From a virus, in IMG/VR virus record IMGVR_UViG_3300035670_000132, positions 1 to 64,000 of that record: a DNA stretch of 64,000 nucleotides; one strand, given 5' to 3'. The notes under the pieces were generated by a model. It made no database searches. It was not told the DNA's origin and saw nothing but the letters and a program-made list of their open reading frames with translations. The position numbers and the translations under genes were made by a program. This document shows, piece by piece, positions 718 to 28,833 of this stretch; position 1 is the stretch's first letter; each line of letters begins with the position of its first letter.

Positions 718-2208
718 ATGTTCATTGGTCAGGATGGATTTATTTGGTGGATCGGCGTCGTTGAAGATAACAATGATCCTCTACTGATTGGTAGAGCGCG
801 TGTTCGCATTTTTGGATATCATCCAAAAGCAAAGCGAGATGAAACTTATACTAAAACTGCAAACAATAATGTTCCTACTGCGTATTTGCCTTGGGCAATA
901 CCACTGATGCCATTGAACTTGCCAAATGCATACGGAAAGATATCTATCGGAGAATGGGTTTGCGGCTTCTTTCTTGACGGCGAGAATGCGCAAGAACCAG
1001 TCATGATGGGTTATTTACCAGCAGCGAGAAAACAATCAGAATTTACTTACAGTAAAAGAGAGACGCAAAGAAACTTTCAAGACTTAGAAGGTCCAATTGC
1101 TGACGGCGAATACTTCGGTTTAGAATTTGAAAACAAGTCAAATAGATTTGAGTGGCATACTCCTTCAAATCATCATATAAGAATAACTGAAGTCGCTAAT
1201 GACTACGGCAATAAAGATTTCGTTCTAGCACATGCTACTGGAAATCTTTTCGTAGCTATGCAGACAGACAAAAATGGAATATCTAGATTAGCACTTTCAC
1301 ATCCATCTGGAACAAGTATCATACTAGCTGAAGATGATATTTACGTGAATAGTCCAAAATGGGGCAATTTTCCACTTGTAAATCAAATAAATTGGGTAGC
1401 ATATAATCAACACACCACTCAAGGCGGAAGCAAGCGTGGTCCTAGAAATTTCACAATCGGAACTCGCGCAAATCCACCAGCACCACCGCCACCAAGAAGA
1501 GGTGGAGGCGGATGCTTCATAGAGTCTTCACTCATTGCGATGGCAGATGGGTCTAAGAAAATGATTTGTGAAGTTCAAATCGGAGATTACGTTCTCGCTA
1601 GAGATGGAAAAACTATCAACAAAGTTAGATTTATTGAAGTAAATGATTCAAAGTATCACAATGAACTATACACTCCAAATCCAGAGATCGAGGCGTTTGC
1701 AACTACAGATCATCCGATCTACGTAGAAGATGAACTTGTATCTGCTGATTTAAAATTGACTCAATCATGCTATCCTTGGCTCAGAGTAACTCGCGAATTC
1801 AATAGCATAGATGTCACGTTTGATGAAAATAAATATGACTACGTGTATAATCTATGGGTAGATGGAGATGGAACTTACATCGTCAATGGATGTGGAACAA
1901 CATCAATCATCTTTGACGGCGGAATGCTCTCGGACTTTGTTGAGATGGGATACTTTGACGTCAGCAAAGTCAGACATCTATACGAAGAATACACAAAGAA
2001 TGGAAACACTCTTCTTCACGGAGCATTCATTCTAAATTATGCTCTAGGCAAGCTCAAATCACGCATTCTATATAGATTAGTAGCATACGCTGCTAGTAAA
2101 GACTTTAAGAGTTTGACTAGAAAACTTATTGTTACTCTTCCAATGTTAGCGTGTGCGAAGTTAGCACACTTAACTGAAAAATTACATAAATGGAGATTCT
2201 TCAAATGA
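718..2208 (+). CDS. gp5: baseplate hub/central spike gp5-like protein (OB-fold, short spike) fused to a C-terminal Hint domain
   Basis: N-terminus FIWWIGVVEDNNDPLLIGRARVRIFGYH...LPWA...GEWVCGFFLDGENAQEPVMMG is the Gp5_OB signature. Hint blocks: GG|CFIESSLIAMADG, TTDHP, VYNLWVDGDGTYIVNG. No lysozyme domain. Confidence 0.9.
   Translation: MFIGQDGFIWWIGVVEDNNDPLLIGRARVRIFGYHPKAKRDETYTKTANNNVPTAYLPWAIPLMPLNLPNAYGKISIGEWVCGFFLDGENAQEPVMMGYLPAARKQSEFTYSKRETQRNFQDLEGPIADGEYFGLEFENKSNRFEWHTPSNHHIRITEVANDYGNKDFVLAHATGNLFVAMQTDKNGISRLALSHPSGTSIILAEDDIYVNSPKWGNFPLVNQINWVAYNQHTTQGGSKRGPRNFTIGTRANPPAPPPPRRGGGGCFIESSLIAMADGSKKMICEVQIGDYVLARDGKTINKVRFIEVNDSKYHNELYTPNPEIEAFATTDHPIYVEDELVSADLKLTQSCYPWLRVTREFNSIDVTFDENKYDYVYNLWVDGDGTYIVNGCGTTSIIFDGGMLSDFVEMGYFDVSKVRHLYEEYTKNGNTLLHGAFILNYALGKLKSRILYRLVAYAASKDFKSLTRKLIVTLPMLACAKLAHLTEKLHKWRFFK
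1513..1905 (+). other. Hint (Hedgehog/intein-like) autoprocessing domain within gp5
   Basis: Block A Cys1 at 1513 (CFxxxSLIxMADGSKKxIxEVQIGDYV), block B TxxH, block F VYNL.VDG..TY.VNG. Ends CGTTS rather than HN. No endonuclease insert. Confidence 0.85.
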
Positions 2209-2432
2209 GCGATGAAGTTAGTGAAAACAAACCAATAGTAACTGAACCATGCCCTAAACCAGTAGAGGTTGAACTCAACTTTATGGATCATGCACTCAAT
2301 TGGCTTGAGACAATCTCTGAAGATGATGCTAATAAGTTTTTGAATGGGATCACTATTGATGCTGCGTTAGTGCTGTTCAAGCACTTTCCTGATAATCAAC
2401 TAGTGAAAGAAGTCTTACATTCTAAAGTATAG
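2205..2432 (+). CDS. small acidic hypothetical protein coupled to gp5
   Basis: ATGA overlap with the gp5 stop (ATG at 2205); 75 aa. Confidence 0.65.
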   Translation: MSDEVSENKPIVTEPCPKPVEVELNFMDHALNWLETISEDDANKFLNGITIDAALVLFKHFPDNQLVKEVLHSKV

Positions 2433-2723: not shown

Positions 2724-3101
2724 ATGGCAACAGAATCATACTTTTCAGACTTTTCTCTGTCTTTTATTCCACATCCAGTCACTGGAGACATAGTTTCGAT
2801 AAAAGAAGAAACAGCAGTAAAGAATGCTCTGATCAATTTGTTGCGTAGCCCTGTTGGAAATAGACCATTTGATCCAGATTATGGTGTAAATCTACAACGA
2901 TATCTTTTTGAGCCAGCAGATGCTTTGACAGAAAACGAAATAAATGAAGACATCGCATATGCAATAAAAACATTTGAACCTCGCGTTGAATTGGTTTCAA
3001 TTACTAGTGAAATGGTAGAATATGGTGTTAACATTACTATCACATATTTTGTGAAGAATGTTCCAGAATTACAAACGCTAGAAACAACAATAACTAGGTA
3101 A
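2724..3101 (+). CDS. gp25: baseplate wedge subunit gp25
   Basis: SD..LSF..HPVTGD...AVKNAL.NL......RPFDP.YG......LFEP...FEPRV (GPW/gp25 family). Confidence 0.92.
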   Translation: MATESYFSDFSLSFIPHPVTGDIVSIKEETAVKNALINLLRSPVGNRPFDPDYGVNLQRYLFEPADALTENEINEDIAYAIKTFEPRVELVSITSEMVEYGVNITITYFVKNVPELQTLETTITR

Positions 3102-9500: not shown

Positions 9501-12500
9501 ATGTCAAATCCAGGTGGCTTAGACTTCAATTCAACACCATATTATGATGATTACAATGAAGATGACAAATATGTTAGAATCTTGTTCAGACCTGGGCGTG
9601 CTGTCCAAGCTAGAGAACTAACTCAACTTCAAACGATCGTTCAAAAACAAATTGAACGATTCGGCAATTACTTCTTCAAAGAAGGAGCAGTAATTGACGG
9701 ATGTGAGCAAGGCTTGGACTTGAATCTTCCTTACATAAAACTGCAACCAACATATAACAGTGCAGAAGTCAATGTAGCATCTTTTCTAGAAAAGGAAATT
9801 GTAGGCTCTGAGACTGGTGTTACGGCTAAAGTCGGTATTGTTGCTGACATTGAAGGCACTGATCCAAAGACGCTTTATGTAAACTACACAGCATCAGGAA
9901 CTGGTGTTTTATCTGTAAATGCAATTCCATCAACGCTTGTTGTTGGCAATTCAATCGGCACAGCAAACGTAACTGCAACAATCAGATACTGGGACACATC
10001 TTTGCTGAAAATATTCGTGACAGATCCAGTTGGAGATTTTGAAGAATTGCTTGCAGCAGAAGAGCCAGTTGATGTCACTACACTTGACAACACTGGTGCT
10101 GGAATTACAATGAGTGTTGAAGCCGCTGTGGACTATCGCGAAGCAAAAGAATTTCAAAATTCAGAAACGATTTTCACAAAAGCATTGCCAGAAGGTTCTA
10201 GATCATACGCAACAAGTGCTACAACTGCCGCAACATCATTCACATCTGGTGGAAAAACATACAACAGGGCATCGAAAGTCACTGTTGGCGATGGCATCAT
10301 CTACGTCGCTGATCACTTCGTAAAACATAGCAATCAGACTATTTTACTTGACAAGTATTCAAATGAGCCAACATATAAGATTGGTGTAGTTCCATCAAAA
10401 GACACGGTAGATTACATTGAAAATGTTGAGCTAGTTGACAATGCTCAAGGTACGCCTAACTTCCAAGCTCCAGGTGCAGATAGATTCAAAATCGACACAA
10501 CATTGACTAAGATTGCAGTCAATGAAGACACTGCTGAGACAGAATTTATCACACTAATGGAAGTAGAAGCCGGCTCAATCAAGAAGAGAAAAACATTCGG
10601 CATCGAAAGCAAGATCGAAGAAGTCATTTCTAGAAGAACATACGAAGAGTCTGGCGATTATACGCTCTCAAATCCAAAAATCAGCATTCGCGAACACTTG
10701 ATTCAGGGCGAAAACGGTGGTAGATATTCTCTAGCTGACGGCGGAAACACAAATCTTCTATTACTAGAAGTAGATCCTTTCGTTGCATACGTCAAAGGCT
10801 TTAGAAGCGAGTTCATCTCAAAGCAATCTATCGAGCTAGAGAAGGGCTTAGACGTTCAGTACGTAGATCAAAACAAAACTCAAGTCAACTACGGCAACTA
10901 CGTTCAAGTCAACGAATTCATTGGATCATGGGACTTGATGCAGTCTACAAGAATTTCTCTATATTCTACTGCATTTGATAGTATTACTGCAAGAACTTTC
11001 TCTGCAACTACAGTAAACTCAGCAAATAAAATCGGCGAAGCTAGAGTTCGCTCAATTGACTATGTGAGTGGTGTTCCAGGCACACCATCTTGCGTTTACA
11101 ATCTATTCTTGTTTGATGTTCAAATGAATGCTGGTCATTCATTTGAAGAAGTTCGTGGCATATATGATTCTCCAGCAAGATATGCGGACATCGTTCTCGA
11201 TGAAAACGGAAACGCAGTTCTTCGTGAATCTTCATTCAATAATGTAATTTTTGAATTGCCATACGATGCAATCAGAGGTCTTCGTGATATTGACAACGAT
11301 ATTCAGTCTGGTTTTACTTTCAGAAAAGAATTCGACATCAACTTCAACTCAGGAACAGCTACTGTTACTTCTGGCGACAATAACGAATCTTTCGTTGGCA
11401 CTGGACTACTATCAGACACTCAGAAAAACGAAAACTACTTTATTTTCCCAACAACTGATGTTGACTGCGCTAACGTAGACGGAACAATCAGCATCAGCAA
11501 TGGATCATCTACAGTCGGTGGATCTTCAACAACATTCGTTGATGATTTTGAAGTTGGTGATTTTATTCGCCTTGGCACAGAAATTCATAGAATATCTGTT
11601 ATCACAAACAACACATCATTGACAATTGCAGACACATACGGTGGAACTAATCTAAGCTCAGAAAATGTGAATCTAGTTTTGCCAGCTTATCTTCCAATCA
11701 GAATGACTGGTCGTGGAAGCAATGGATCTACATCAGATCGTGCTATTACTGTCACTATTCCTGGCAGCACTAGCATGACAATCGAAATTAGAGAGACTGC
11801 GCCAGCATTCCAAGCTAAATTGATTGCAACTTTGAACAGATCAAACGCTAGAGAGATGAAAAAAACTCTCTATGCAAATCAAACTGTCCAAATTCAAGCT
11901 AATACACATCCTAATGGATTGTCTGGACCATATTCGTTGGGCAAATCTGACATATATCGTATCAAAGCAATCTACGAAAGTACAAGTTTTGATATTCCAG
12001 CTACAAGTGCTAACACGGATGTTACTGGTCTATACACTTTTGATAACGGTCAGCGCGACAACACATATGAAAACGGTAAAATTACACCAAAACTTGGCGT
12101 AGTTCCAACTGGAGCGCTTCAAGTCGTCTTTGACTACTTCACGCACGACATCACTCAAGGTTTGGGCTACATGTCTGTCGATTCTTATCCAATTGACGAT
12201 GTGAATGAGACATCAACGACAATCAATACGTCAGAAATACCAGTTTATATCAGTCGCACAAGCGGTTATGCATACAATCTAAGAAACTGTCTAGACTTCA
12301 GACTCAGAAAAACAGATTCTACAGCAGCAACTAATCCTCCAGACAGCGATGTGTTTCAGATTCCTGTTGGCGGATTGCACAATCCAGTGCCATTCTCTGA
12401 CTTTGACTCTAGCTTATCGCTATACAAGGGCAGAAATGCTCGTCTATTCTTGACAGACAGAGGTGAATTCGGTGTCGTCAACGGAAGCCCAGGCTATCCT

Positions 12501-15500
12501 TCTCCACAAATTCCAACTTCTATTCCGGGAACACTCGATCTAGCAATCGTCAGCATTCCTGCATATCCTTCTGAGCCAAAGAACGTTGTTATTGAGCCAC
12601 AGAAGAATCGTAGATACACAATGCGTGACATTGGCAAGATTGAAGATCGTGTCAATAGACTAGAATACTACACTTCTTTGAATTTGCTAGAGAAGCAAGC
12701 GGCAGAGACATCAATCGTCGATGAAAATGGTATTGATCGTTTCAAGAACGGTATTCTAGTTGATCCATTCATCGGATATAACGTAGCAGACGTAAATGCT
12801 GAAGACATTCAGACATCAGTCAACAGACAAGAAAAGTTTGCTACAACTAAAATTGATTTGAATCAAGTGCCAATGCAGTTTGATGCTGCACTATCAACTG
12901 GCGTAACTCGCAACACTGGCAACAAAGTCACTCTTTCATACTCAACAGAAGTATTCTCAGAGAATCCATATGCATCATCTGCCATCAATCTAACTCAAGA
13001 CTTGAGCTACGATTGGACTGGCGTGATGACAATGTATCCAACTACAGATAACTGGATGGAACTAGTAAACTATCCAGGAAAGAATCTCGTTGTCGATCTT
13101 GAAGGCAACGCAGACAACTGGCGTCAACTCACTGACGCATGGGAATCTGAACACGATTCTTGGGAAACTCGTTGGCTTGGCGTTCCTGTTCTTCAAGAAG
13201 CTGCGAAAGCTAAGTTTCCAGTAGGAAGAATCTATGACGTCTCAGCAGATCGTCAATATGATGACATCAGCGCTAACATCAAAGTAGGACCAACAGAACT
13301 TCAGTCAGAGACGAGAGTCGTTGACGTTTCAGTGAATCACTACATGAGAAGCAGAGATTTCATCTTCTCGGTGTCTGGACTAAAGCCATTTTCAAAGCTA
13401 TATGCATTCGTCGATGGCGTCAACGTCTCATCTAACTGCAAGTCAATCACTCTAGCAAGTGGAAAAACAATCAATGATGTATTCAATCTGATTGATTCTG
13501 ATGGCTTCGTTGCAACTGATGCGCTCACATACACTTCAGGAAACACTGGCGTTCTTTTCGCAAGTTCAACTGGTGAGATAAACGGCATTTTCACTCTACC
13601 AGAACAGACGTTCTTTGTCGGCCAGCGCGAATTCAAACTGTCTGATGATGCTCAGAACAGCGAAACGTCAGCTACTACCACAGCAAAAGCACTAATTGTT
13701 GCGCAAGGCATTTCTGAGATTGCATCAACAAGCGTATTGAACACAAGACCAGCCAACATCAATTTTGCGTCTGCGATTGAAAAGACTGCTGTCCAAAAGC
13801 AATCATCAACTGCTGGTGCTGCGATTAGAAACCCACTAAGTCAGAGTTTCATTGTTGACGATGTGAACTATCCTTACGGCGTCTTCGTATCATCAATTGA
13901 CGTATTCTTCAAGTCGAAGTCAACAACTGGCACAGATAAAGTCTACATGCAGATTCGTGAAATGGAGAATGGTCTTCCAACTCGCAAAGCAATCGGTGAC
14001 GCAATCGCTGCTGTCAGTGCATCGGCTATCACAACAAGCGAAGACGGAACTTCAGCGACTACGTTCACTTTCAGTAATCCAATCTACTTGACTGCTGGTA
14101 ATGAATATTGCTTCTCACTAATTCCAGAAGGAAATAGAGACAACTTTGAAGTCTGGATCGCTGAACTAGGCGCAATCGATTTGTCAAGCACATATAATCA
14201 GCCAAGAATTGAAAAGCAGCCAGCCGCTGGCACATTGTTTACTTCTTCTAACGATTATACATGGTCAGTTCGTCAAACTCAAGATTTGAAGTATACTATC
14301 AAAGTAGCAACTTTCACTGAAAATGCGACTTCATATGCATACTTGACGAATAAGAGTTTTGATGCAGACTTGAATTACACAAGTATTGTTCCTAACATTG
14401 CTCAAATCAGACCAGATAATACTGAAATCTCACTGAGCGTTAGAACAGCAGATTCGACATCTATTCTATACGAATATATTGATGTTGATAATCTAGAGCT
14501 TGTCAATTTAAATTCTCAGAAAACTATCGTCGATTCTGCTCAAGAAGTTTCTGATGAAATCAAATCATTGACATATCGTGTCACTATGCAGACACAAAAC
14601 AAGTATGTGACACCAGTTATTGATCTTGAGCGAGTTCAGACGATTGTATATAATAATGCAATCAACTATGACACATTTATCTCTCTTGATGGATTAGTTT
14701 CTTACTCATCAGGAGCAAACACAGTAACTGGCATTGGAACAAGTTTTACTCTTGATCTAGATACTGGCGAATATGTCAAGTTCGGAGATCAGTATCGTCA
14801 GATTCTATCAATATCAAGCAATACTTCGTTGACTGTCGCGACTGATTTCTCTGTCAGTGCGTCAAATGTTGCATACACATCTTCAAACGAAGAGAATCCA
14901 GACGGACCTTATGCGTCTTTGTCAAGATATATCACTCGCAGAGTCGAACTAGCTGACGGATTCGAAGCTAATGATCTAGTAGTTTACTTGGATGTCAATC
15001 GCCCAGTCGGAACTGACGTCAAAGTCTATTACAAGATTTTGAATGACTCTGATAGCGACTCATTTGATACTAAGTTCTATCAAGAAATGAGCCTTGAAGG
15101 TCAGCGCTTATTCAACGATGATCAGTCTAAGTATGTTGCAGAGAAATATGTTGTTCCTAACAGCATCAAGTCTGGTGGATCAAATCTACTATCTGGAACA
15201 GTAGATATAAGCACTTCATCAACTACTGTGACTGGAACATCAACACGATTCTTAGAACAACTTAGAATTGGAGACACAATTCGTGTAGATTCAGATTATC
15301 GTGTCGTTACTGCAATCGCAAATAATACTTCATTGACTGTTGATAGTAATTTCAGCGTAACTGCATTAGACAAAGAAATGTATAAGATGCTTTATAACGC
15401 AATTGTTTATACTACTCCAGATAATCGCACATATTCGGGATATAAATACTTTGCGATAAAGATCGTGTTCTTGTCTAACAATGTCGCTGTAGCGCCGAGA

Positions 15501-15533
15501 GTGAAAAAATTGAAAGCATTAGCATTGACATAA
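9501..15533 (+). CDS. large virion structural protein (DUF4815/VrlC-like)
   Basis: N-terminal PYYDDY....YVRILFRPGRAVQARELTQLQ, APGADR, RRTYEESGDY, RYTMRDIG..E.R...LEYYTSL.LLE; 2010 aa. Confidence 0.85.
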   Translation: MSNPGGLDFNSTPYYDDYNEDDKYVRILFRPGRAVQARELTQLQTIVQKQIERFGNYFFKEGAVIDGCEQGLDLNLPYIKLQPTYNSAEVNVASFLEKEIVGSETGVTAKVGIVADIEGTDPKTLYVNYTASGTGVLSVNAIPSTLVVGNSIGTANVTATIRYWDTSLLKIFVTDPVGDFEELLAAEEPVDVTTLDNTGAGITMSVEAAVDYREAKEFQNSETIFTKALPEGSRSYATSATTAATSFTSGGKTYNRASKVTVGDGIIYVADHFVKHSNQTILLDKYSNEPTYKIGVVPSKDTVDYIENVELVDNAQGTPNFQAPGADRFKIDTTLTKIAVNEDTAETEFITLMEVEAGSIKKRKTFGIESKIEEVISRRTYEESGDYTLSNPKISIREHLIQGENGGRYSLADGGNTNLLLLEVDPFVAYVKGFRSEFISKQSIELEKGLDVQYVDQNKTQVNYGNYVQVNEFIGSWDLMQSTRISLYSTAFDSITARTFSATTVNSANKIGEARVRSIDYVSGVPGTPSCVYNLFLFDVQMNAGHSFEEVRGIYDSPARYADIVLDENGNAVLRESSFNNVIFELPYDAIRGLRDIDNDIQSGFTFRKEFDINFNSGTATVTSGDNNESFVGTGLLSDTQKNENYFIFPTTDVDCANVDGTISISNGSSTVGGSSTTFVDDFEVGDFIRLGTEIHRISVITNNTSLTIADTYGGTNLSSENVNLVLPAYLPIRMTGRGSNGSTSDRAITVTIPGSTSMTIEIRETAPAFQAKLIATLNRSNAREMKKTLYANQTVQIQANTHPNGLSGPYSLGKSDIYRIKAIYESTSFDIPATSANTDVTGLYTFDNGQRDNTYENGKITPKLGVVPTGALQVVFDYFTHDITQGLGYMSVDSYPIDDVNETSTTINTSEIPVYISRTSGYAYNLRNCLDFRLRKTDSTAATNPPDSDVFQIPVGGLHNPVPFSDFDSSLSLYKGRNARLFLTDRGEFGVVNGSPGYPSPQIPTSIPGTLDLAIVSIPAYPSEPKNVVIEPQKNRRYTMRDIGKIEDRVNRLEYYTSLNLLEKQAAETSIVDENGIDRFKNGILVDPFIGYNVADVNAEDIQTSVNRQEKFATTKIDLNQVPMQFDAALSTGVTRNTGNKVTLSYSTEVFSENPYASSAINLTQDLSYDWTGVMTMYPTTDNWMELVNYPGKNLVVDLEGNADNWRQLTDAWESEHDSWETRWLGVPVLQEAAKAKFPVGRIYDVSADRQYDDISANIKVGPTELQSETRVVDVSVNHYMRSRDFIFSVSGLKPFSKLYAFVDGVNVSSNCKSITLASGKTINDVFNLIDSDGFVATDALTYTSGNTGVLFASSTGEINGIFTLPEQTFFVGQREFKLSDDAQNSETSATTTAKALIVAQGISEIASTSVLNTRPANINFASAIEKTAVQKQSSTAGAAIRNPLSQSFIVDDVNYPYGVFVSSIDVFFKSKSTTGTDKVYMQIREMENGLPTRKAIGDAIAAVSASAITTSEDGTSATTFTFSNPIYLTAGNEYCFSLIPEGNRDNFEVWIAELGAIDLSSTYNQPRIEKQPAAGTLFTSSNDYTWSVRQTQDLKYTIKVATFTENATSYAYLTNKSFDADLNYTSIVPNIAQIRPDNTEISLSVRTADSTSILYEYIDVDNLELVNLNSQKTIVDSAQEVSDEIKSLTYRVTMQTQNKYVTPVIDLERVQTIVYNNAINYDTFISLDGLVSYSSGANTVTGIGTSFTLDLDTGEYVKFGDQYRQILSISSNTSLTVATDFSVSASNVAYTSSNEENPDGPYASLSRYITRRVELADGFEANDLVVYLDVNRPVGTDVKVYYKILNDSDSDSFDTKFYQEMSLEGQRLFNDDQSKYVAEKYVVPNSIKSGGSNLLSGTVDISTSSTTVTGTSTRFLEQLRIGDTIRVDSDYRVVTAIANNTSLTVDSNFSVTALDKEMYKMLYNAIVYTTPDNRTYSGYKYFAIKIVFLSNNVAVAPRVKKLKALALT

Positions 15534-20451: not shown

Positions 20452-21825
20452 GTGGGCATTTATTATAATGCCCAGTCGATAACGTCTGGGCTTGTATCTT
20501 ACGTAGACGCTGGTAACTACAAGTCCGTAAAGGGAAGACGAAATATTCTTAGCTGGGATAGCTGGACTGCTGGCTCTGGCAGCGCAACTGGCTACTCTCA
20601 GAACGGACTGACTACTGAAAATACTAGACTAGCAGACACTGATCCTTGGGGTCAAACAAATATAGTTTGGGGATCTTATCCTTCAGGCGACGGAAATGCT
20701 GACGGTGGATGGAACACTTCTTGGTATAACATTGACCGAGAAAAACTCTACAGATTCAGCGTCTGGGTAAGAAGAACTAGCAGTACAACTGGCGGCACTT
20801 TTTATCTTGGCATGTATGATAACGTTGGCTCTGTCGTCATGAGCACTGGCTCAGTCAATACAAACGCATATTGGGACTGTAGAAACATCTCCTGGATGAC
20901 TCAGAATCAATGGTATCTTGTCGTTGGTCATGTATATCCTCACACAACAACTTACACGGGAAGACATCCAGACACAGGCGTATATACTGTTGATGGCGGA
21001 AGATTCGGCGATATTGGCGGATGCAATATCGGCAGTGGAGATATAAAATGGAATCCAGCCGCAACTCAAACTATACATAGAACTTATCACTACTATTGCG
21101 GCGACAGCACTAGCAGATTGCAATTCTATCAACCTAGAATTGATTTGTGTGACGGAACTGAACCAACAATAGATGATCTTCTAGACAATATTGGATCTAA
21201 AGCACTTGATATTGTCAGATCAAATAAACATTATCAATTTTATAATGCGCCTAAAGTCAACGCTAGCGGATACTTTGAATTTGATGGCTCTACTACATAC
21301 GTCAACAGCATATACGAAGACACTGATCTAGACGGAGATCCCATATTCACTGTAGACATGTGGATCAAAAGAACTGCATCGTTCAGTAGCGCTGGTTATT
21401 GGGGACTTGCAGGAGACGTTGCTCTTCAAGGAATAAATGGATATACACATCCAACAACCGCAAATAAAATATCCATTGATCTTTGGGGAACTGCAACTTT
21501 CCACACGAACGTTGACTATCCACTAAATCAATGGGTGCACGTTGTCTGGAGAAAAAAGTCATCTAATTTCAACGTGAATTCAGTCTCAATCTTTATCAAT
21601 GGCGTAGAGTATACCGGCGCAGGTCTTACTGTAGTCAGAGGAAGTGATCACACGCCAAACTTGACGACATCGACAAAGGGAATAACTTTAGGCAGATTAT
21701 CTCCTTCTTCAAACAGCTACTATGCTCCAGGTCATGTAGCTAATGCAAAGTTCTATGCTCGATCTTTGTCAGATGTTGAGATTTTGCAAAACTTCAGCGC
21801 ACAACGCGGCAGATTTGGAGTCTAA
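20452..21825 (+). CDS. LamG/concanavalin A-like lectin protein, paralog 1
   Basis: GTG start; GL..YVDAGN.KS N-terminus; FEFDG, W.HVV and FY.R.LS..EILQNF.AQRGRFGV C-terminus. Confidence 0.8.
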   Translation: MGIYYNAQSITSGLVSYVDAGNYKSVKGRRNILSWDSWTAGSGSATGYSQNGLTTENTRLADTDPWGQTNIVWGSYPSGDGNADGGWNTSWYNIDREKLYRFSVWVRRTSSTTGGTFYLGMYDNVGSVVMSTGSVNTNAYWDCRNISWMTQNQWYLVVGHVYPHTTTYTGRHPDTGVYTVDGGRFGDIGGCNIGSGDIKWNPAATQTIHRTYHYYCGDSTSRLQFYQPRIDLCDGTEPTIDDLLDNIGSKALDIVRSNKHYQFYNAPKVNASGYFEFDGSTTYVNSIYEDTDLDGDPIFTVDMWIKRTASFSSAGYWGLAGDVALQGINGYTHPTTANKISIDLWGTATFHTNVDYPLNQWVHVVWRKKSSNFNVNSVSIFINGVEYTGAGLTVVRGSDHTPNLTTSTKGITLGRLSPSSNSYYAPGHVANAKFYARSLSDVEILQNFSAQRGRFGV

Positions 21826-21831
21826 CGCATC

Positions 21832-23013
21832 ATGAGTGTTCTCCATTCGCCAAGTCTAGTATTGAACGATCTCGTGTTGTATTATGACAAATACAACATT
21901 GCGAATTCTTGGATAGGCAGACCAACGACGAATTTGTTGTCGTCAACGCTAGCGACATTCTCATCAACCTCTGGATGGTTTACAGGAGACGTTCCTGGTC
22001 CAGTTTACAGAAGAATTTTAGTTGGTCAAGGATATCGTGGCAGAAACGCAGTAATGATCCAAAAAGGAACAGCAGCGTCTGGTGGATATTTTCAAGTTGA
22101 GACTACATTTCCTGAAGCTGTAGTTGGCGGAACGACATACACTGCACAGATAAAGTATAAAAGACAAGACTCAAGCACAGCATTTTTGATAGGCGATTGG
22201 GGTGGTCCTGATGGAAATAATGCCAATTGGACAACGATATACGATGGTCAACTTGACACAGAATGGAGACTTCGCGTTGTTCAAAGACTATACACAAACT
22301 CAGCGAGTGCTGGATTCACGTTTGGTGTAAACAGCACAACTGCTGGAAAATGGTTGATTTTCTCAGACTTTCAATTAGAAAATAGCACAGTCTCTTCTGC
22401 ATTCACAGTCGGCACAAGAAGCAATACTCAATCAATTTTAGATTTGACACAAAACAATTTGATCACTTCTAATGCATTGACTTACGCTACGCCGAATACG
22501 TTCAGTTTTAGTGGATCAAGTTATCTAAGTGTTCCATTCAACGCGACAAAATTCAATTTCAATAGTGAACAGACAATCATTATTTGGATGAAAAACGAAG
22601 CGTCTGTTGCTGCTAGAAGAAATCCATACAATCAAGCGTATGGTGGCGGTGGAACTATAACTCACGAGAGCAATACCAACTTGAACTATTATTATGGAAC
22701 AAATGGTGGAAATAGCACACCATATACAAGTCATGGATCTCCGTTCAGCGTAGTGGATGGCGAAACTGCTATGGTTGCAATAACTAGAGATCCAGCGAAC
22801 ACAAAGTGGTATAAGAACGGCGTTCTTTCTGGAACTCGTGCAAATCCTTACGGCGCATCTGTAGTTACTGGAACTAGTCCAATTCTAATAGGCACTGGAT
22901 ATACTACAGGATTTATAGGTAACTTAGATTCAGTCATGGTGTATACTCGCGCACTCAGTGAATATGAGATTCTTCAAACTTTTGCTGCAACAAGAAACAG
23001 ATACGGGCTATAA
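21832..23013 (+). CDS. LamG/concanavalin A-like lectin protein, paralog 2
   Basis: Same terminal framework (YTRALSEYEILQTFAATRNRYGL). Confidence 0.8.
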   Translation: MSVLHSPSLVLNDLVLYYDKYNIANSWIGRPTTNLLSSTLATFSSTSGWFTGDVPGPVYRRILVGQGYRGRNAVMIQKGTAASGGYFQVETTFPEAVVGGTTYTAQIKYKRQDSSTAFLIGDWGGPDGNNANWTTIYDGQLDTEWRLRVVQRLYTNSASAGFTFGVNSTTAGKWLIFSDFQLENSTVSSAFTVGTRSNTQSILDLTQNNLITSNALTYATPNTFSFSGSSYLSVPFNATKFNFNSEQTIIIWMKNEASVAARRNPYNQAYGGGGTITHESNTNLNYYYGTNGGNSTPYTSHGSPFSVVDGETAMVAITRDPANTKWYKNGVLSGTRANPYGASVVTGTSPILIGTGYTTGFIGNLDSVMVYTRALSEYEILQTFAATRNRYGL

Positions 23014-23015
23014 CC

Positions 23016-24167
23016 ATGGCAGTAAACTTCAATCCAGCAATAGTCACTAATGGTCTAACGTTTGCATTTGATATGGGTAACACCAAGAAGTCTTGGTTCG
23101 GCGCGCCTACAACAAATCTAGCTAAAAACAGTGACGAATCAATTGACTGGAGCATAGGAAATCTAATTGCATCAGTCTCTCGCAGCACAGTAACTGCTAA
23201 TGAAGTATACAGAATAACATCTACAACTGCTGGCGCATTTAGATTTTATTTCAACTTAGCTAAGTTAGTCAACGGGCAAACTTACATGTTGTCTTTCAAG
23301 TATAGATTCATTTCTCAAAATGCATCTCAGAGTTTTTACTTGACTGACTGGAACGACACATCAATCATCACGACAACTACTGACTTGGGAGACGGCGTAT
23401 TCTATCACACCGGCGTAGGTTCTCGCGCAACATATGACAGCACATATAGATTCATGGATGGCTACATTTCAGCTAGCACAATCGTAGAAATATGGGACTT
23501 TCAGTTAGAGCAATCTTCAATTGCAACTCCATACACTAAGTATCAGAGAACAAATACTCAGTCTATTGTTGATATGACTAGTAGCACAACAGTGACAGTT
23601 TCTGATTTGCTGTATCTGTCAGACAATACATTTGAGTTTGACGGTAATGCAAGATTGTATGGAACATTATCTAATTCTGCTGCTGAACTTGAATACTCTA
23701 GGTTAATTTGGATAACTCCAACAGTATCAAGCGGAGATATGAAAAGTGCATTTTTGAACAGTATAGGAAATAATAGCGATAAAGCGGTCGGAATAGAAAA
23801 TGGATACGCTGCGTTTCATCAATATACAAATTCGAACGGTGCTGGAACTACTGGCGATTATTCTGTTAGAGGTGCCACACCAATTTCTTTATATAATACT
23901 TACATGATATGCGCAACTGTAGATAGAAACGTAAGCGTAAATAATATCAAAGTGTATTTGAATGGTAATTTAGACGCAACCGCATCAAGATCGATTGGAG
24001 TATCAAATAGTGACAGTATAATAATTGGAGGTCCAGCGTCAGACTCTTATTCTGGATCTAGAATGTTCTACGGATCTATATACTGCGGATTTCACTACAA
24101 TAGAGTATTATCAGATTTGGAAGTAATGCAAAATTTCAGTGCCCTTAGAGCACGATTTGGAGTCTAA
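23016..24167 (+). CDS. LamG/concanavalin A-like lectin protein, paralog 3
   Basis: NPAIVTNGL..AFD.GN.KSW ... YNRVLSDLEVMQNFSALRARFGV. Confidence 0.8.
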   Translation: MAVNFNPAIVTNGLTFAFDMGNTKKSWFGAPTTNLAKNSDESIDWSIGNLIASVSRSTVTANEVYRITSTTAGAFRFYFNLAKLVNGQTYMLSFKYRFISQNASQSFYLTDWNDTSIITTTTDLGDGVFYHTGVGSRATYDSTYRFMDGYISASTIVEIWDFQLEQSSIATPYTKYQRTNTQSIVDMTSSTTVTVSDLLYLSDNTFEFDGNARLYGTLSNSAAELEYSRLIWITPTVSSGDMKSAFLNSIGNNSDKAVGIENGYAAFHQYTNSNGAGTTGDYSVRGATPISLYNTYMICATVDRNVSVNNIKVYLNGNLDATASRSIGVSNSDSIIIGGPASDSYSGSRMFYGSIYCGFHYNRVLSDLEVMQNFSALRARFGV

Positions 24168-24171
24168 TCAT

Positions 24172-25359
24172 ATGTCAATAAATCATTCTCCTAAAATAGT
24201 AACTGATGAATTGCTGTTTTATTACGATCAAGAAAATACTCGCAGGTCGTGGTACGGAAAGCCAACTGAGAATCTGCTATCGCTAGCTGGATCAGATCCA
24301 TCAATTGAGAGGAGTGGAACTTCTTATCCTTATTACAGTGTCAATATAGATTCGTTCGTCAAAGCTCGTTGGTCTCCAACTAACAATAAACTATCAATGT
24401 CATTTGAAGGAAAGCGTGATTATGTTCAAGGAGGAACTGGCGGTGGTGGTGATGGATATCCAAGCATGTATATCTACTTCAGCGATTGGACCTGGTCTAG
24501 TTCATTTGGCACATCAAACTATGAATGGACACAAGCAACACAAAATAACATAACTATGCCAGATCCAACTGGCAAAACTGTATATTTTGCAATATATCAC
24601 ATGAACTCTGGAAATCCAGGAAGAAGTTATAGCAGAAATCATCAAGTTGAATTTGGAGAGTTTGCAACTCCATTCATCAACGGAACTAGAACTTCAACAA
24701 ACGCACTGCTAGATTTGACTGCACAGAATACGATCACAATGACGCAACTGACTTACACTTCAGATGGTAAGTTTTCTTTCGGTGGTCAAGGCGAAAATGA
24801 CGGCAGCCCAACTGGAGATTATATCACAATCCCAACTGCATTGACTAGCACTAGCCCATCAGTCAAGTCAAATGGATGCACGTACTCATGGTGGAGCAAA
24901 ATAACAGCAGCGCAGCCTTTTGGTCAGTGTATTCTCTTCGGCTCTGGCACTATTGCTCACGTTGAATTCAAGAATGAAGGCACTACAAGTCCATACTTCA
25001 GAACAGAAGCAGCGGTAGAGAATGGAAAGAGTTTTGGATCAGGCACAATCCCAGGCGGATCTCTTGTCGGCAGATGGGCTAACTTCACGATTGTGTTCGC
25101 GAACAATGAAGCTGGTCGACCAGTTCGCTGGTACCACAACGGCGAACTCTTTCACACAGGATCAATGACTGGAGGAACATCACCAGACACTGAGTATTTC
25201 TACTTCAGCAATATTGGTAGATCGACAGGAACAGCAGAATTTTTATACTCAAACAGTTTTTATGGAGAGATTCCAGTATTTCAAATATATAATAGATCAC
25301 TAACCGAACAAGAAGTGCTTCAGAACTTCAATGCACTGAGAGGAAGATTCTCACTATGA
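24172..25359 (+). CDS. LamG/concanavalin A-like lectin protein, paralog 4
   Basis: Start MSINHSPKIVTDEL aligns with the other paralogs; ends YNRSLTEQEVLQNFNALRGRFSL. Confidence 0.8.
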   Translation: MSINHSPKIVTDELLFYYDQENTRRSWYGKPTENLLSLAGSDPSIERSGTSYPYYSVNIDSFVKARWSPTNNKLSMSFEGKRDYVQGGTGGGGDGYPSMYIYFSDWTWSSSFGTSNYEWTQATQNNITMPDPTGKTVYFAIYHMNSGNPGRSYSRNHQVEFGEFATPFINGTRTSTNALLDLTAQNTITMTQLTYTSDGKFSFGGQGENDGSPTGDYITIPTALTSTSPSVKSNGCTYSWWSKITAAQPFGQCILFGSGTIAHVEFKNEGTTSPYFRTEAAVENGKSFGSGTIPGGSLVGRWANFTIVFANNEAGRPVRWYHNGELFHTGSMTGGTSPDTEYFYFSNIGRSTGTAEFLYSNSFYGEIPVFQIYNRSLTEQEVLQNFNALRGRFSL

Positions 25360-25952
25360 TTACAACTTTCAGATTTGATAATTCAGACTTCACTGAATAT
25401 GCCAACATGATTATGAATTTCAAGTCTCACTACACTGAGATGATGGCGACAGATTTGCAGAGAACTGGAACTAGTTTTCCGAAATCATTTCGCTGCGTGA
25501 ACCTGCTGAACATTGAAAGCTGTGGTCAGATGGCTCTATTTTTCACGAGACTCTTCACGCAGACTTACGTAGAACGTCACGGGCTTTTAGTGTCTCACGC
25601 AGCATATTACGGCAAACAAGGCTTTATTGACTGGCACACAAATGCAAACACTCCCTATTGGAACGCAGTTTGCACATTCAGCGCTAACGGTAATGGATTC
25701 TTTGAATATAAAGTTGACGATCAAGTTGTACATATGCAAGATCCAGTTGGCTGGTCAGTAAAGAAATCACGATGGGGTCAGCCTCCAGTCTGGCACAGAG
25801 CAGTATCAAACGACAGTGACAGAATAACTATCACATTCTCTTCAGAAGAAGAGAACAGAATAGACGCATTCTTATCTGGGCTAAACAATATTGATGTTGT
25901 CGTTGAAGAAGAATTGCATCCGTTCTTGAATCAAGCTCCACCAATAATGTAA
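25356..25952 (+). CDS. putative 2OG-Fe(II) oxygenase-like (double-stranded beta-helix) protein
   Basis: YY...GFIDWHTN ... VWHRA ... RITITF gives an HxN...H...R arrangement; ATGA-coupled to the upstream lectin gene. Confidence 0.55.
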   Translation: MITTFRFDNSDFTEYANMIMNFKSHYTEMMATDLQRTGTSFPKSFRCVNLLNIESCGQMALFFTRLFTQTYVERHGLLVSHAAYYGKQGFIDWHTNANTPYWNAVCTFSANGNGFFEYKVDDQVVHMQDPVGWSVKKSRWGQPPVWHRAVSNDSDRITITFSSEEENRIDAFLSGLNNIDVVVEEELHPFLNQAPPIM

Positions 25953-25959
25953 CAAAAAA

Positions 25960-27087
25960 ATGGGAATCTACTACAATCCTCGCCCAGTCAACGCTGGGTT
26001 GATTTTTGCGTATGATATGCAGAATACGATGAAATCGTGGAAAGGTATGCCCGTAACCAATGTCGTTACTAATTGGGATTTGGATCTTGGTTGGAGCAAA
26101 AGCTATTGCACTTCAATTCAGTGGAATGATTATGAGCCTCCAGCTGGAATATATTCTCCAGTCGTTTCTTTTATAGACGCAGATTCAAACGGAAATGGAT
26201 ACTGGTATTCATACGGAAATTATGCTCCACAAGATCCTAGCACAACATATTCAATATCAGTTTATGCGAGAACTGTCGGTGCACCTTGGTCAATTAGAGC
26301 ATATACAGCAGACAACGCAGAAGTTGGAAGACAATATACAGAATCAATAACTGTTCCAGGCGATGGATCTTGGTATAGGTTAGAATTTGTGCCTATAACT
26401 ACTCCGTCAAACACTCAATCAGATTCTCTTAGCTTTCAATTTACAGTAATTCCAGCGGGACAAAGATGTTGGCTTTGTGCGCCGCAGATGACTGCAACTG
26501 GATTTCATGTTCCATATGTTGCCGGCACTCGCTCAGCAACTCAAGCTATACTAGATTTCACTAATAATCGTACAATAACTGCTAGCGATTTGACATACAA
26601 TAATGACAATACATTCACATTTGATGGCACAAATGACGTCATACTCACAGATTTTCCTGCACAGACGCTACAGACATCAACACTAGAAGCTGTTGTATAT
26701 GACACTAAAAATAATGGAGCTTATCGCTCAATTATTCAAATAAATACTAACACAGATGATGCGTTGTATATCAATCCATCAAACAATTTGCAGTTCTGGC
26801 CAGCGACAGCATCTTCGCTTCAAGTTCCAGCAAATCAGTGGAACTATGTCTGCGCAGCATATAATGGATCATCAATTCTTTACTGCGTGAATGGTGAGTT
26901 TCAAGAAATTGCTGGAGCATCACTAGACTTCACAAACTATCAATTTCTGAGAATTGGTGGTCATAGCACAGGTGACGGCGAAAGATTCAAGGGGCAAATA
27001 CCTATAGCTAGAGTATATAACAGAGCATTGACAAGATCAGAAATGTTGCAAAATTATAGTGCATTTAGAGGAAGATTTGGCATATGA
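25960..27087 (+). CDS. LamG/concanavalin A-like lectin protein, paralog 5
   Basis: GL.FAYD..N..KSW.G.P.TN ... FTFDG.ND ... YNRALTRSEMLQNYSAFRGRFGI. Confidence 0.8.
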   Translation: MGIYYNPRPVNAGLIFAYDMQNTMKSWKGMPVTNVVTNWDLDLGWSKSYCTSIQWNDYEPPAGIYSPVVSFIDADSNGNGYWYSYGNYAPQDPSTTYSISVYARTVGAPWSIRAYTADNAEVGRQYTESITVPGDGSWYRLEFVPITTPSNTQSDSLSFQFTVIPAGQRCWLCAPQMTATGFHVPYVAGTRSATQAILDFTNNRTITASDLTYNNDNTFTFDGTNDVILTDFPAQTLQTSTLEAVVYDTKNNGAYRSIIQINTNTDDALYINPSNNLQFWPATASSLQVPANQWNYVCAAYNGSSILYCVNGEFQEIAGASLDFTNYQFLRIGGHSTGDGERFKGQIPIARVYNRALTRSEMLQNYSAFRGRFGI

Positions 27088-27611
27088 GTTTACAAATTGG
27101 ACCTAAGTGGAATATAACAGATGCTTTGAGATTCACACCAACTGGCAAGCATCCTCGACTTCATATCATGGCTGAATCTGGCTCATTTGAAGCTACTGAT
27201 CAAAACAGAAGCGTTCGTGTTCGTGCTAATGGCGTTGACTTGTTGAACAGTTCATCGCCCAGGTCGTATAGACTGACACAACTTCGCATCGTCAACGGCG
27301 ACTGGACTCTAGTCGCATCAAACGGCTACGATGTCTACGGAAGCACGGTAGATGCACAAGCTGCTGCTGATTTCATAGACACATTTCAAGTCGGCGACTT
27401 ACTCATCAGCAATACTTGGGACGAACCATACAACAATAGTGGATATTTTACAACAAAATTCAGAGACAACTTCTACTCAAACGTATTGTCATTCACTAGA
27501 GACTTTAGAGATATGCATATACTCATCGCCGTGAAGGGTAGAGGATTGATATACGAACAACATAGACGAAGATATTCAAATTCAATTCATTTTTCGGGTT
27601 GGATTTACTAA
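27084..27611 (+). CDS. ILEI/PANDER (GG-type lectin) domain protein
   Basis: YDVYG....A...ADFI.....GD.....TWDEP ... R...ILI..KG matches the GG/ILEI pattern. Confidence 0.65.
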   Translation: MSLQIGPKWNITDALRFTPTGKHPRLHIMAESGSFEATDQNRSVRVRANGVDLLNSSSPRSYRLTQLRIVNGDWTLVASNGYDVYGSTVDAQAAADFIDTFQVGDLLISNTWDEPYNNSGYFTTKFRDNFYSNVLSFTRDFRDMHILIAVKGRGLIYEQHRRRYSNSIHFSGWIY

Positions 27612-27624
27612 CAAGGGAACAATC

Positions 27625-28833
27625 ATGGGTGTTTTTTCTGGTCCAGAAATAGAAAACGATCAACTAATTCTGTGTGTAGACGCAGCGAATTCAAAAAGCT
27701 GGAGCTATAACGTTCATCCTAAGCCAATTGACATTGGTGCTTGGTGGACCGCATCTAGCAATAGTACAGTAACCAGAGATTTGACATTCACTGCGACGAC
27801 ACAATCGCCAGCGGGTGGTGTTCCTATAAAAATGATAGTTTCTGGTACAGATCCCTATATAACGTCAACGCAAGTTTATCTTGCGCCGGCAGCAGATGGT
27901 CAGACATGGACTATCAGCGTTTATGCCAAATCAAGTGTCGCTACTACAGGCGAGCTTTTTATTTTGGGATTGAATTCTTCCAATACATACGTTGAAGCGC
28001 CATCTGGCACAATAAACATAACTAATAATTGGCAAAGATTCTCTTACACATACACATTCACAAATGGAACTATAGCTGGAATAGCAATCAGACTAGATGG
28101 ACCAAACAGCGGTTTCGGCACAGATGGAGTGACTGCGCCAACAATTTGGTGGGATGGTCTTCAAGTAGAGCGCAACTCTTCAGCAACTGCATTCAATCCA
28201 GTAACTAATGCATCAGGAAACAAAGTTCTTGATGTGAGCCCGAATGACTACACAGCGTCTTTCGTCGGCTCAACATCACACAACAACACTGGAGCAAAAT
28301 CATTCGATACTAATGCAACAGCAGTGACTCAGAACAATAACATTGCTATTCCTACAATCACTTTTGCTGATGCGTCTTCATATTCACTTGATTTTTGGGT
28401 AAAAATTCGCTCTAGCGCTCCGTCAACGTTTCATAGTTTGACTGGAAACAACGCAACAGCGCCATGGGTTATTCTTTACACAAACGACACTACAGGCGCA
28501 AGTTGGTTCATGAGATTCAGAAACGCATCATCAACATATCAAGATTTTTCGAACGTCACTAACTGGAACATCCAATCAAATTGGGCTAATGTTACACTCA
28601 CAATTTCAAATTCTAGAGTTTGTAGTTTCTATTTGAATGGTATCTTTAGACAATCAATAACACTTGCAACTTCTGCTTTAGATGCGGTCACTATTGGTGG
28701 TGGATATTCTTCGGCAGGAAACTACTATCCGTTCCAGGGCAGCATAGGTCTCGCTAAGTTCTACACACAGACGCTGACTGCTGACGAAGTGAGAAAACAT
28801 TTCACTGCTAATCGTTCTAGATTTTCAGTTTGA
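27625..28833 (+). CDS. LamG/concanavalin A-like lectin protein, paralog 6
   Basis: GPEI..D.L.LCVDAAN.KSW ... FYLNG ... LTADEVRKHFTANRSRFSV. Confidence 0.8.
   Translation: MGVFSGPEIENDQLILCVDAANSKSWSYNVHPKPIDIGAWWTASSNSTVTRDLTFTATTQSPAGGVPIKMIVSGTDPYITSTQVYLAPAADGQTWTISVYAKSSVATTGELFILGLNSSNTYVEAPSGTINITNNWQRFSYTYTFTNGTIAGIAIRLDGPNSGFGTDGVTAPTIWWDGLQVERNSSATAFNPVTNASGNKVLDVSPNDYTASFVGSTSHNNTGAKSFDTNATAVTQNNNIAIPTITFADASSYSLDFWVKIRSSAPSTFHSLTGNNATAPWVILYTNDTTGASWFMRFRNASSTYQDFSNVTNWNIQSNWANVTLTISNSRVCSFYLNGIFRQSITLATSALDAVTIGGGYSSAGNYYPFQGSIGLAKFYTQTLTADEVRKHFTANRSRFSV

Follow-up and report, generated by a model that had tools for sequence, protein, structure and literature searches.

The central spike of an uncultured marine T4-like phage ends in a Hint domain with an obligate helical tail, a predicted self-removing cassette shared with other virion proteins

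Hint domains are known as inteins, as the autoprocessing domains of Hedgehog proteins and as bacterial intein-like (BIL) or pretoxin domains, and the locus described here raises the question of what such a domain does at the end of a phage's cell-puncturing spike. The locus lies in a 64,000-nt stretch (the window) of IMG/VR record IMGVR_UViG_3300035670_000132 (78.5 kb, 43% complete), which stems from an uncultured marine T4-like phage. On the plus strand of the window, at positions 718-2208, an open reading frame (ORF) encodes the 496-residue precursor of the central spike, gp5 (P0001), identified by its match to baseplate hub families of PHROG (E 1e-28) and by gene order. With moderate confidence, we read gp5 as a precursor of 56 kDa in which the C-terminal 231 residues form a portable cassette, composed of a Hint domain and a helical C-terminal domain (CTD), that removes itself by N-terminal cleavage.

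Residues 1-125 of gp5 (718-1092) have the oligonucleotide/oligosaccharide-binding (OB) fold of T4 gp5: a profile of 40 homologues reaches T4 gp5 in the PDB (1pdl/1k28) with an E-value of 2e-14, and the gp5 N-terminus matches PHROG families 694, 430 and 1922 (E 1e-25 to 1e-28). In an AlphaFold2 model of gp5, built on a 40-sequence alignment (identity in the gp5 set 36-79%) and attaining a mean predicted local distance difference test (pLDDT) score of 80, this fold scores 80-90. It is followed by a short beta-rich spike without lysozyme (residues 126-252, 1093-1473) that is modelled as beta strands and ends in a conserved HTTQGGSKRGPRNFTIGTR motif. The VIA structural alignment pairs residues 6-214 of the model with residues 6-441 of T4 gp5 (Z 12.8, 177 of 436 residues), skipping the lysozyme domain, and Pfam detects no lysozyme family in gp5 at E<=1; not all members of the spike family possess this domain. 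Between spike and Hint domain stands the linker PPAPPPPRRGGGG (residues 253-265, 1474-1512), a Pro-rich and poly-Gly segment that is kept as a Pro/Gly run in the family and is modelled with pLDDT below 50. Its DNA has a GC content of 62%, as against 37-41% in the surrounding gene, an excess that would suit a joint for recombination. Cleavage is predicted at Gly265|Cys266, between nucleotides 1512 and 1513. More than 50 full-length homologues (gp5 clusters) share the whole layout, which therefore is no product of chance.

The Hint domain itself comprises residues 266-397 (1513-1908) and is modelled with pLDDT 85-92. Its best VIA match is BIL2 of the Tetrahymena BUBL1 locus (Z 15.9, root-mean-square deviation [rmsd] 2.4 Å over 129 aligned residues), followed by the DnaB mini-intein (6frg) and the gp41-1 intein (6riz; both Z 13.7, rmsd 2.2 Å, 113-117 aligned), the Clostridium thermocellum BIL (Z 13.2, 2.3 Å, 116), Hedgehog HhC (Z 12.6, 2.4 Å, 114) and the Tetrahymena Vint domain (8r2c; Z 12.3, 3.6 Å, 144). 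The alignment to Vint extends to residue 437, thus including the first helices of the CTD. Foldseek likewise finds BIL2 (E 2e-7), and the top PDB sequence match of the family profile is a BIL domain (E 2e-7); HhC was not reached by PDB profile searches with the family. On P0001 alone, Pfam yields sub-threshold Hint matches, namely PF05203 with 26.6 bits and PF01079 with 23.7 bits. The latter score lies below the gathering cut-off of 29.7 and covers residues 264-308 only; 39 of 40 family members match PF01079 at E<0.01.

Residue conservation, counted in an alignment of 150 cluster representatives of this Hint type, separates the catalytic steps that the domain may perform from those that it cannot. 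Cys266, Phe267, Thr329, His332, Trp354, Gly383 and Asp384 are present in all 150 sequences, Glu307 in 149 and Asn390 in 148. Both the block A nucleophile (Cys1, that is Cys266, encoded at 1513-1515) and the block B Thr-x-x-His motif (TTDH, residues 329-332) are hence in place, and the invariance of Cys266, Thr329 and His332 indicates that the thioester step at Gly265-Cys266 is under strong selection. Block F/G (VYNLWVDGDGTY..GTTSI, residues 376-397) has a different ending from that of inteins. Residue 396, which in the VIA ranges is aligned with the terminal Asn of BIL2 (143) and of six inteins, among them gp41-1 (125), RecA (440), PI-SceI (454) and DnaB (154), is Ser in 139 sequences, Thr in eight, Asn in two and Cys in one, and position 397 is hydrophobic throughout (Ile 135, Leu 12, Met 2, Val 1). 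Position 395, the site of the penultimate His in inteins, is Thr in gp5 and is occupied by Thr in 86 and by His in 52 of the sequences. With Ser396 at the site of the terminal Asn and Ile397 at +1, canonical Asn-dependent splicing is excluded, and on the same two residues a true intein was rejected. Behind the Hint domain, Asp400, Gly401 and Gly402 are found in 138, 147 and 138 sequences, respectively. The residue preceding Cys1 varies (Gly 69, Asp 39, Val 13, Glu 7, Ile 6). As judged from these motifs, the pattern matches the descriptions of Hog-type and B-type BIL domains (PMC7765530).

Much of this had been anticipated by a sequence-only reading of the stretch. Its OB fold, its lack of a lysozyme domain and its Hint module, matched structurally by BIL2 (Z 15.9) and HhC (Z 12.6), are all borne out, and the linker, Cys1 at 1513, TxxH, a block F ending in GTTS and a helical, basic tail of about 100 residues were found where it had put them. 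Its view that a Hint domain devoid of the terminal Asn could not splice canonically but might form a thioester at Gly265-Cys266 agrees with Ser396, Ile397 and the invariant Cys1, Thr and His. The comparison that it drew between the RRGGGG end of the spike and a ubiquitin-type terminus is not supported, because the two arginines are not conserved and the -1 residue is Gly in only 69 of 150 sequences.

Directly after the Hint domain follows the CTD, a positively charged tail of 99 residues and five predicted helices (residues 398-496, 1909-2205) with pLDDT 79-93 in the full-length model. It opens with the conserved DGG motif (residues 400-402), and Gly435 (149/149) and Asn440 (134/149) are its conserved positions. 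The isoelectric point is 9.8, and net charge within the family ranges from +1 to +13. No classical transmembrane (TM) segment was found in the CTD, the maximal 19-residue hydropathy being 0.7-1.4, nor does it contain an invariant nucleophilic residue (Lys, Ser, Thr or Cys); intramolecular transfer to an acceptor inside the CTD is for this reason unlikely. No family in Pfam or PHROGs matches the CTD. Folded alone from 10 sequences it reached a pLDDT of 62, and a wide PDB search returned generic helical bundles with a best Z of 6.0.

The distribution of the CTD is strict. A CTD-only profile retrieved 103 clusters among 1.84 billion representative proteins. Beyond those already collected, these comprised 87 clusters (76 complete, nine short fragments and two spurious), and in 76 of the 76 complete proteins the CTD stands at the extreme C-terminus, straight after this type of Hint domain. 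The CTD is thus an obligate partner of this Hint type, in a layout like that of Hedgehog Hog. Hint domains with the canonical ...VVHNK end also occur in related phages (L090, L091 and L095) and carry no CTD, so that the CTD goes hand in hand with a lost terminal Asn; those of L090 and L091 are of another, A-type-like kind.

Among known systems, the resemblance to Hog (HhC, PDB 1AT0/6TYY) extends from the Hint fold and the missing terminal Asn to the Gly|Cys-Phe junction (here GGGG|CF) and to a helical appendage that immediately follows the Hint domain and is never separated from it. The combination of a variable N-terminal 'cargo' with a constant autoprocessing unit also recalls the nematode warthog and groundhog proteins (PMC2362128). 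However, the cassette is located on a phage virion protein in the bacterial cytoplasm, with no sterol and no known adduct, its CTD consists of five helices whereas the sterol recognition region (SRR) of Hedgehog is a helix-loop-helix without demonstrable homology to it, and the Pfam Hint model matches about the first 45 residues only, below its cut-off. The general base of Hedgehog is Asp46, for which Glu307, Asp384 and Asp400 of the phage protein are mere candidate counterparts. BIL domains (BIL2, PDB 6Y75/6TMM; C. thermocellum, 2LWY) include the top structural match and share the Gly-Gly before the Hint domain, and B-type BILs similarly possess all intein motifs but the C-terminal one and occupy variable, non-essential positions (PMC7765530). 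BIL2, in contrast, is flanked on either side by a ubiquitin-like domain and still ends in Asn143, and BILs were described in bacterial secreted or surface proteins and lack a conserved helical tail.

If gp5 is processed as we propose, the Hint domain would fold inside the infected cell and Cys266, aided by Thr329 and His332, would attack the Gly265 carbonyl in an N-to-S acyl shift. The resulting thioester would be resolved by water or a cellular thiol, probably with the assistance of Glu307, Asp384 and Asp400. Predicted products are a lysozyme-less spike of 29.7 kDa (residues 1-265, ending ...PPPPRRGGGG) and a 26.5-kDa Hint-CTD fragment, which should remain in one piece without C-terminal cleavage because the terminal Asn is replaced by Ser396 and the +1 residue is Ile397. 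The basic, amphipathic CTD would probably hold the cassette at the membrane or serve the cassette itself, rather than being a payload specific to the spike. Self-removal is favoured by the conservation of the residues for the first step, the absence of those for the third and the many unrelated N-terminal partners of the cassette.

These partners go well beyond spikes. The same succession of linker, Hint domain and CTD terminates giant DUF4815/phrog_358 proteins of the baseplate module (1540-2397 residues), Gly_rich_2 proteins, proteins matching PHROGs annotated as 'virion structural protein' and small beta-rich proteins of 80-150 residues. The junction before the cassette is mostly poly-Gly, and some N-terminal partners have a hydrophobic helix immediately before Cys1. 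In some partners, Hint domains with a His-Asn (HN) end are arranged in tandem upstream of the cassette: P0135 (2397 residues), P0165, P0184, P0164 and P0191 contain one to four such HN-type domains (...VHNK), with the cassette within a few residues. In a tree of the cassette, the type of host gene must change at least twice, and as many as 11 times by parsimony. Judging from this tree, the cassette as a rule descends together with its gene, yet has moved, and it would do so between virion genes at Pro/Gly-rich joints, where it could also split a gene in two.

Such a split can be followed in a homologue of a gene that is intact in the window. The 2010-residue phrog_358/DUF4815 protein encoded at 9501-15533 has homologues that are divided at about residue 1445, at the motif NPLSQSF. 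Its residues 8-1453 align to a cassette-ended gene of a related locus (L084:5414-11202), and residues 1445-1608 align to the next gene of that locus, which starts 36 nt past the stop codon of the cassette. The same pattern, with a restart a few dozen bases on, recurs in L085 (L085:4854-10695), the N-terminal parts in these two loci ending at about residue 1421-1453, and L091 (L091:7089-9414) has the same split but with an HN-type Hint domain. The downstream halves begin with MKPIAQTF or MKPIGQTF. A further fibre-like protein, of 1912 residues (L095:3275-9013), contains an internal Hint domain ending LVHNK and then 350 residues including a Peptidase_S74 domain, and so unites two distinct self-cutting devices. 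A benign, flexible scar would be tolerated at the split points, whereas an adduct would not, and this too favours self-removal.

On gp5 itself, the cassette is one of several possible endings. In a tree of OB domains all Hint-CTD forms fall into one clade of 70 rows (support 95/92), in which nine forms instead bear, after the same Pro/Gly linker, a Hint-less helical tail of 160 residues, here called tail-2 (carriers: L048:6817-7968, P0054, P0057, P0063, P0095, P0097 and P0102). Tail-2 starts with KIICTKLYELG, has conserved Cys and Trp residues and ends in a TM-like hydrophobic helix. It is nested among Hint-CTD forms at no fewer than four places (at least 4) of the tree, which means that the modules have been swapped on closely related spikes. 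Despite a similar short starting motif, no homology between CTD and tail-2 was detected by hidden Markov model (HMM) comparison (3 bits) or hhalign (1% probability), and atlas look-ups for both led only weakly, to hypothetical proteins of viruses and to short fragments annotated as Hint. The clade also includes relatives free of any module (P0056, P0096 and P0106), and P0060 ends three residues past its poly-Gly run; these forms suggest that the spike can do without a module. That close relatives lack one is a further point in favour of self-removal.

Both modules are accompanied by a small helical protein, orfC, whose gene (2190-2432, plus strand; conserved core 2283-2429) overlaps the gp5 stop by 19 nt. 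An orfC HMM matched in 10 of 10 loci with a Hint-CTD gp5 and in the tail-2 locus L048, but neither in about 70 other gp5 loci nor in the phrog_358 cassette loci. In relatives the protein has about 55 residues, with Ile54, Lys64, Phe66, Pro67 and Lys79 invariant, and it has no match to known families.

A comparison with T4 also bears on the spike tip. T4 gp5 has a homologous OB fold and spike and is itself cut once during assembly. It is not cut by a Hint domain, keeps both pieces and possesses a lysozyme domain and a PAAR cap (gp5.4), neither of which is detectable here. The sequence-only reading was right in seeing no PAAR gene before gp25: PF05488 has no match there or elsewhere in the 78.5-kb record, which is 43% complete, and none of the 25/37 families listed for 29 small ORFs is a PAAR-like PHROG. 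Its proposal that the Hint module takes the place of PAAR at the tip, with the two excluding each other, fails in the survey. PAAR was not detectable in any of 32 related viral records, whether or not they have a Hint domain; one of them is a complete genome of 150 kb with a Hint-less gp5. As Hint-less relatives are equally devoid of detectable PAAR, its absence is not tied to Hint and mutual exclusion was rejected; either this phage group as a whole lacks PAAR or the model is not sensitive enough to find it.

Several other explanations of the cassette deserve consideration. Rather than being hydrolysed, the Gly265 thioester might be passed, in the manner of Hog or BUBL, to a nucleophile chosen by the CTD, such as a lipid head group, a small molecule or a protein amine. 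This is the main alternative, though one that we judge rather unlikely, and under it an adduct or cross-link would be covalently attached to the C-terminus of the spike and of the other virion proteins that carry the cassette. Among solved structures the nearest is BIL2 (Z 15.9), which conjugates the preceding Gly-ended ubiquitin-like domain to lysines (PMC8616854), and the Gly|Cys-Phe junction, Asn-less Hint domain and obligate helical appendage together reproduce the Hog layout (PMC2362128, PMC7906309). A role in transfer would also be consistent with a CTD that never occurs without this Hint type and is amphipathic and basic, with the invariant or nearly invariant Glu307, Asp384 and Asp400 as candidate general bases, with the hydrophobic helix directly before Cys1 in some partners and with the two invariant lysines of orfC. 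It fits poorly, however, with a -1 residue that may be Gly, Asp, Val, Glu or Ile, with a CTD that offers no invariant Lys, Ser, Thr or Cys as internal acceptor and has no demonstrable homology to the Hedgehog SRR, and with downstream halves that begin with Met-Lys or Met-Asn/Ser and not with Cys, Ser or Thr. At the internal split points of fibre-like genes, moreover, a bulky adduct would separate halves that need to fit together. The adduct or cap that the sequence-only reading had envisaged on the spike tip found no support; internal split points and unrelated partners fit self-removal better. Were transfer nevertheless to take place, which seems to us rather doubtful, phages would have their own equivalent of the cholesteroylation of Hedgehog or of BUBL conjugation, in which the poly-Gly C-termini of the spike and other virion proteins are moved to a lipid or a partner amine (for instance of a split-fibre half) without ATP or a separate conjugating enzyme, yielding tail parts that are lipid-tipped or covalently cross-linked.

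It is unlikely, in our estimate, that the module instead travels with the virion as cargo of the tip, where three uncleaved or still-bound copies of Hint-CTD would hang on flexible linkers, the CTD engaging the host membrane and the Hint domain effecting release as in pretoxin-HINT proteins, while in the producing cell orfC would hold or chaperone this hydrophobic module. A precedent is provided by type VI secretion, with its evolved VgrG proteins and Eag-type chaperones. The module is located at the tip of a puncturing device, it alternates on the same linker with the Hint-less tail-2 and its TM-like end, and orfC stands beside both modules and beside no module-less gp5. But many proteins other than spikes have the same cassette, and the CTD lacks a true TM segment and is conserved, unlike the polymorphic toxin domains behind pretoxin-HINT. 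Moreover, N-terminal cleavage by Hint domains is normally spontaneous after folding in the reducing cytoplasm, and the cassette has no conserved redox trap. Pretoxin HINT (PF07591) similarly precedes a C-terminal domain, in proteins that a contractile or secretion machinery delivers, and a small gene lies downstream in both cases. The differences are that P0001 has no PF07591 match at E<=1, that the CTD is conserved across its 103 clusters and that orfC also accompanies the Hint-less tail-2 form; a summary table of secretion systems lists HINT proteases under the type V and type VII systems (T5SS and T7SS), not with VgrG/PAAR of the type VI system (T6SS; PMC3482391). Quite unlikely, too, is a self-cleaving assembly chaperone analogous to Peptidase_S74, whose CTD would trimerise and gather three chains for the folding of the trimeric beta structure before the Hint domain cuts. 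A trimeric, fibrous nature is probable for many partners, such as gp5, phrog_358 proteins (which have tail-fibre-like segments) and Gly-rich or collagen-like proteins, the module is C-terminal, largely helical and presumably self-removing like S74 on trimeric phage tail proteins, and the L095 protein bears Hint and S74 together. S74 is not homologous, though, and employs a Ser-Lys dyad instead of a Cys thioester. It abuts its fibre, whereas a poly-Gly linker of 4-11 residues and a 130-residue Hint domain lie between CTD and fibre and would uncouple the register. In close relatives the same spike folds in the presence of another module or of none, and some partners have just 36-150 residues or are small beta-sandwich proteins. 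That the cassette is an unreactive relic, a decayed intein or Hint domain merely lengthening the spike, we consider highly improbable. The domain does lack the terminal Asn and the +1 nucleophile, and the Pfam scores of P0001 stay under the curated cut-offs, but a decayed domain would not retain Cys1, Thr and His in 150 of 150 diverged sequences along with many further invariant positions.

Self-removal, the reading that we prefer, must itself be weighed with care. We observed directly the Hint fold with its catalytic residues and without the Asn, the strict coupling to the CTD, the portability of the cassette and its split-gene context, but we infer the occurrence and timing of cleavage, its hydrolytic nature and the role of the CTD, and a number of findings weigh against the reading. 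A coupled and conserved CTD (Gly435, Asn440), the DGG motif and the extra invariant acidic residues seem to exceed what hydrolysis apparently needs, and in Hedgehog it is for selecting the nucleophile that such an appendage exists (PMC7906309, PMC7765530). That tail-2 can stand in the place of the cassette and that orfC is present beside both modules could mean that the module is cargo of the virion tip and not discarded. Finally, the hydrophobic helix right before Cys1 in some partners points to chemistry at a membrane surface.

The genomic surroundings of gp5 are those of a baseplate module, with gp25 (2724-3101, plus strand; PF04965, E 9e-15) and gp6 (phrog_219, E 4e-165) directly downstream, and beyond these two genes the window continues as a T4-like structural module. 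The order orfA-orfB-gp5-orfC-Hc1-like-gp25-gp6 is kept in nine loci. A motif search located the T4-type late promoter motif TATAAATA directly before gp25 (2710-2717), one of 11 sites in the window where 3.1 would be expected, and all but one of the 11 are on the plus strand; owing to this copy immediately 5' of gp25, gp5, orfC and the Hc1-like gene are assigned to the transcription unit upstream. The Hc1-like gene, which lies between gp5/orfC and gp25 (2488-2700), encodes a 70-residue homologue of the chlamydial histone H1-like protein (PF07432, E 1e-16). It is unusual in a baseplate cluster and is kept at the same place in 58 related loci. Further downstream, a run of six or seven paralogous genes (20452-28833) matches phrog_8510 ('virion structural protein') in its C-terminal part.

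The nearest cultured phages are the Pelagibacter phages HTVC008M and Mosig and the Methylophilales phage Melnitz, with 36-37% identity in gp6. Immediately upstream of gp25, HTVC008M (L100, NC_020484 30815-31114) encodes a hypothetical protein of 99 residues, which by size and place alone resembles the OB-only mini-gp5 (97-130 residues) of many related loci. On a second IMG/VR contig from another record (35.9 kb; L081:9218-10708 for gp5), the proteins from orfA to gp25 and the first 110 residues of gp6 are 100% identical to those of the window; these identical proteins indicate that the same phage was assembled independently.

A tblastn search of Hint-CTD against 50,697 GenBank phage records returned helicase inteins only, and cellular genomes of 185,579 species contain a single relative, at the contig end of a Burkholderiales metagenome-assembled genome. 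There, in a high-GC contig (L101:1-1023), the relative stands behind more than 50 prolines and a poly-Gly run, and its tail is not matched by the CTD profile. Among viral models derived from UniProt are entries named 'Hint domain containing protein [uncultured Caudovirales phage]', so that such sequences are public, if unstudied. A description of the cassette was not found in the papers searched on Hint domains with gp5, baseplates or cyanophages, on DUF4815 or on the Vint structure.

Known settings of Hint domains include Hog-type and BIL domains (PMC7765530). What appears new here is the setting of the predicted Hint autoprocessing, in marine T4-like phages that are abundant and that have the domain both on their puncturing spike and on numerous further virion proteins, together with a new accessory domain. 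Whether it transfers its partner or merely releases it, the cassette would offer protein engineering a compact natural combination of an N-cleaving Hint domain and an accessory domain. Should it transfer the C-terminus, it would bring thioester-based conjugation chemistry to parts of the phage virion, for which, to our knowledge, no such chemistry has been described. If the cassette only removes itself, annotation is affected, since the mature spike would have 265 rather than 496 residues, and these phages would possess a new, portable and self-erasing gene-end element that allows structural genes to be split, shuffled and extended harmlessly.

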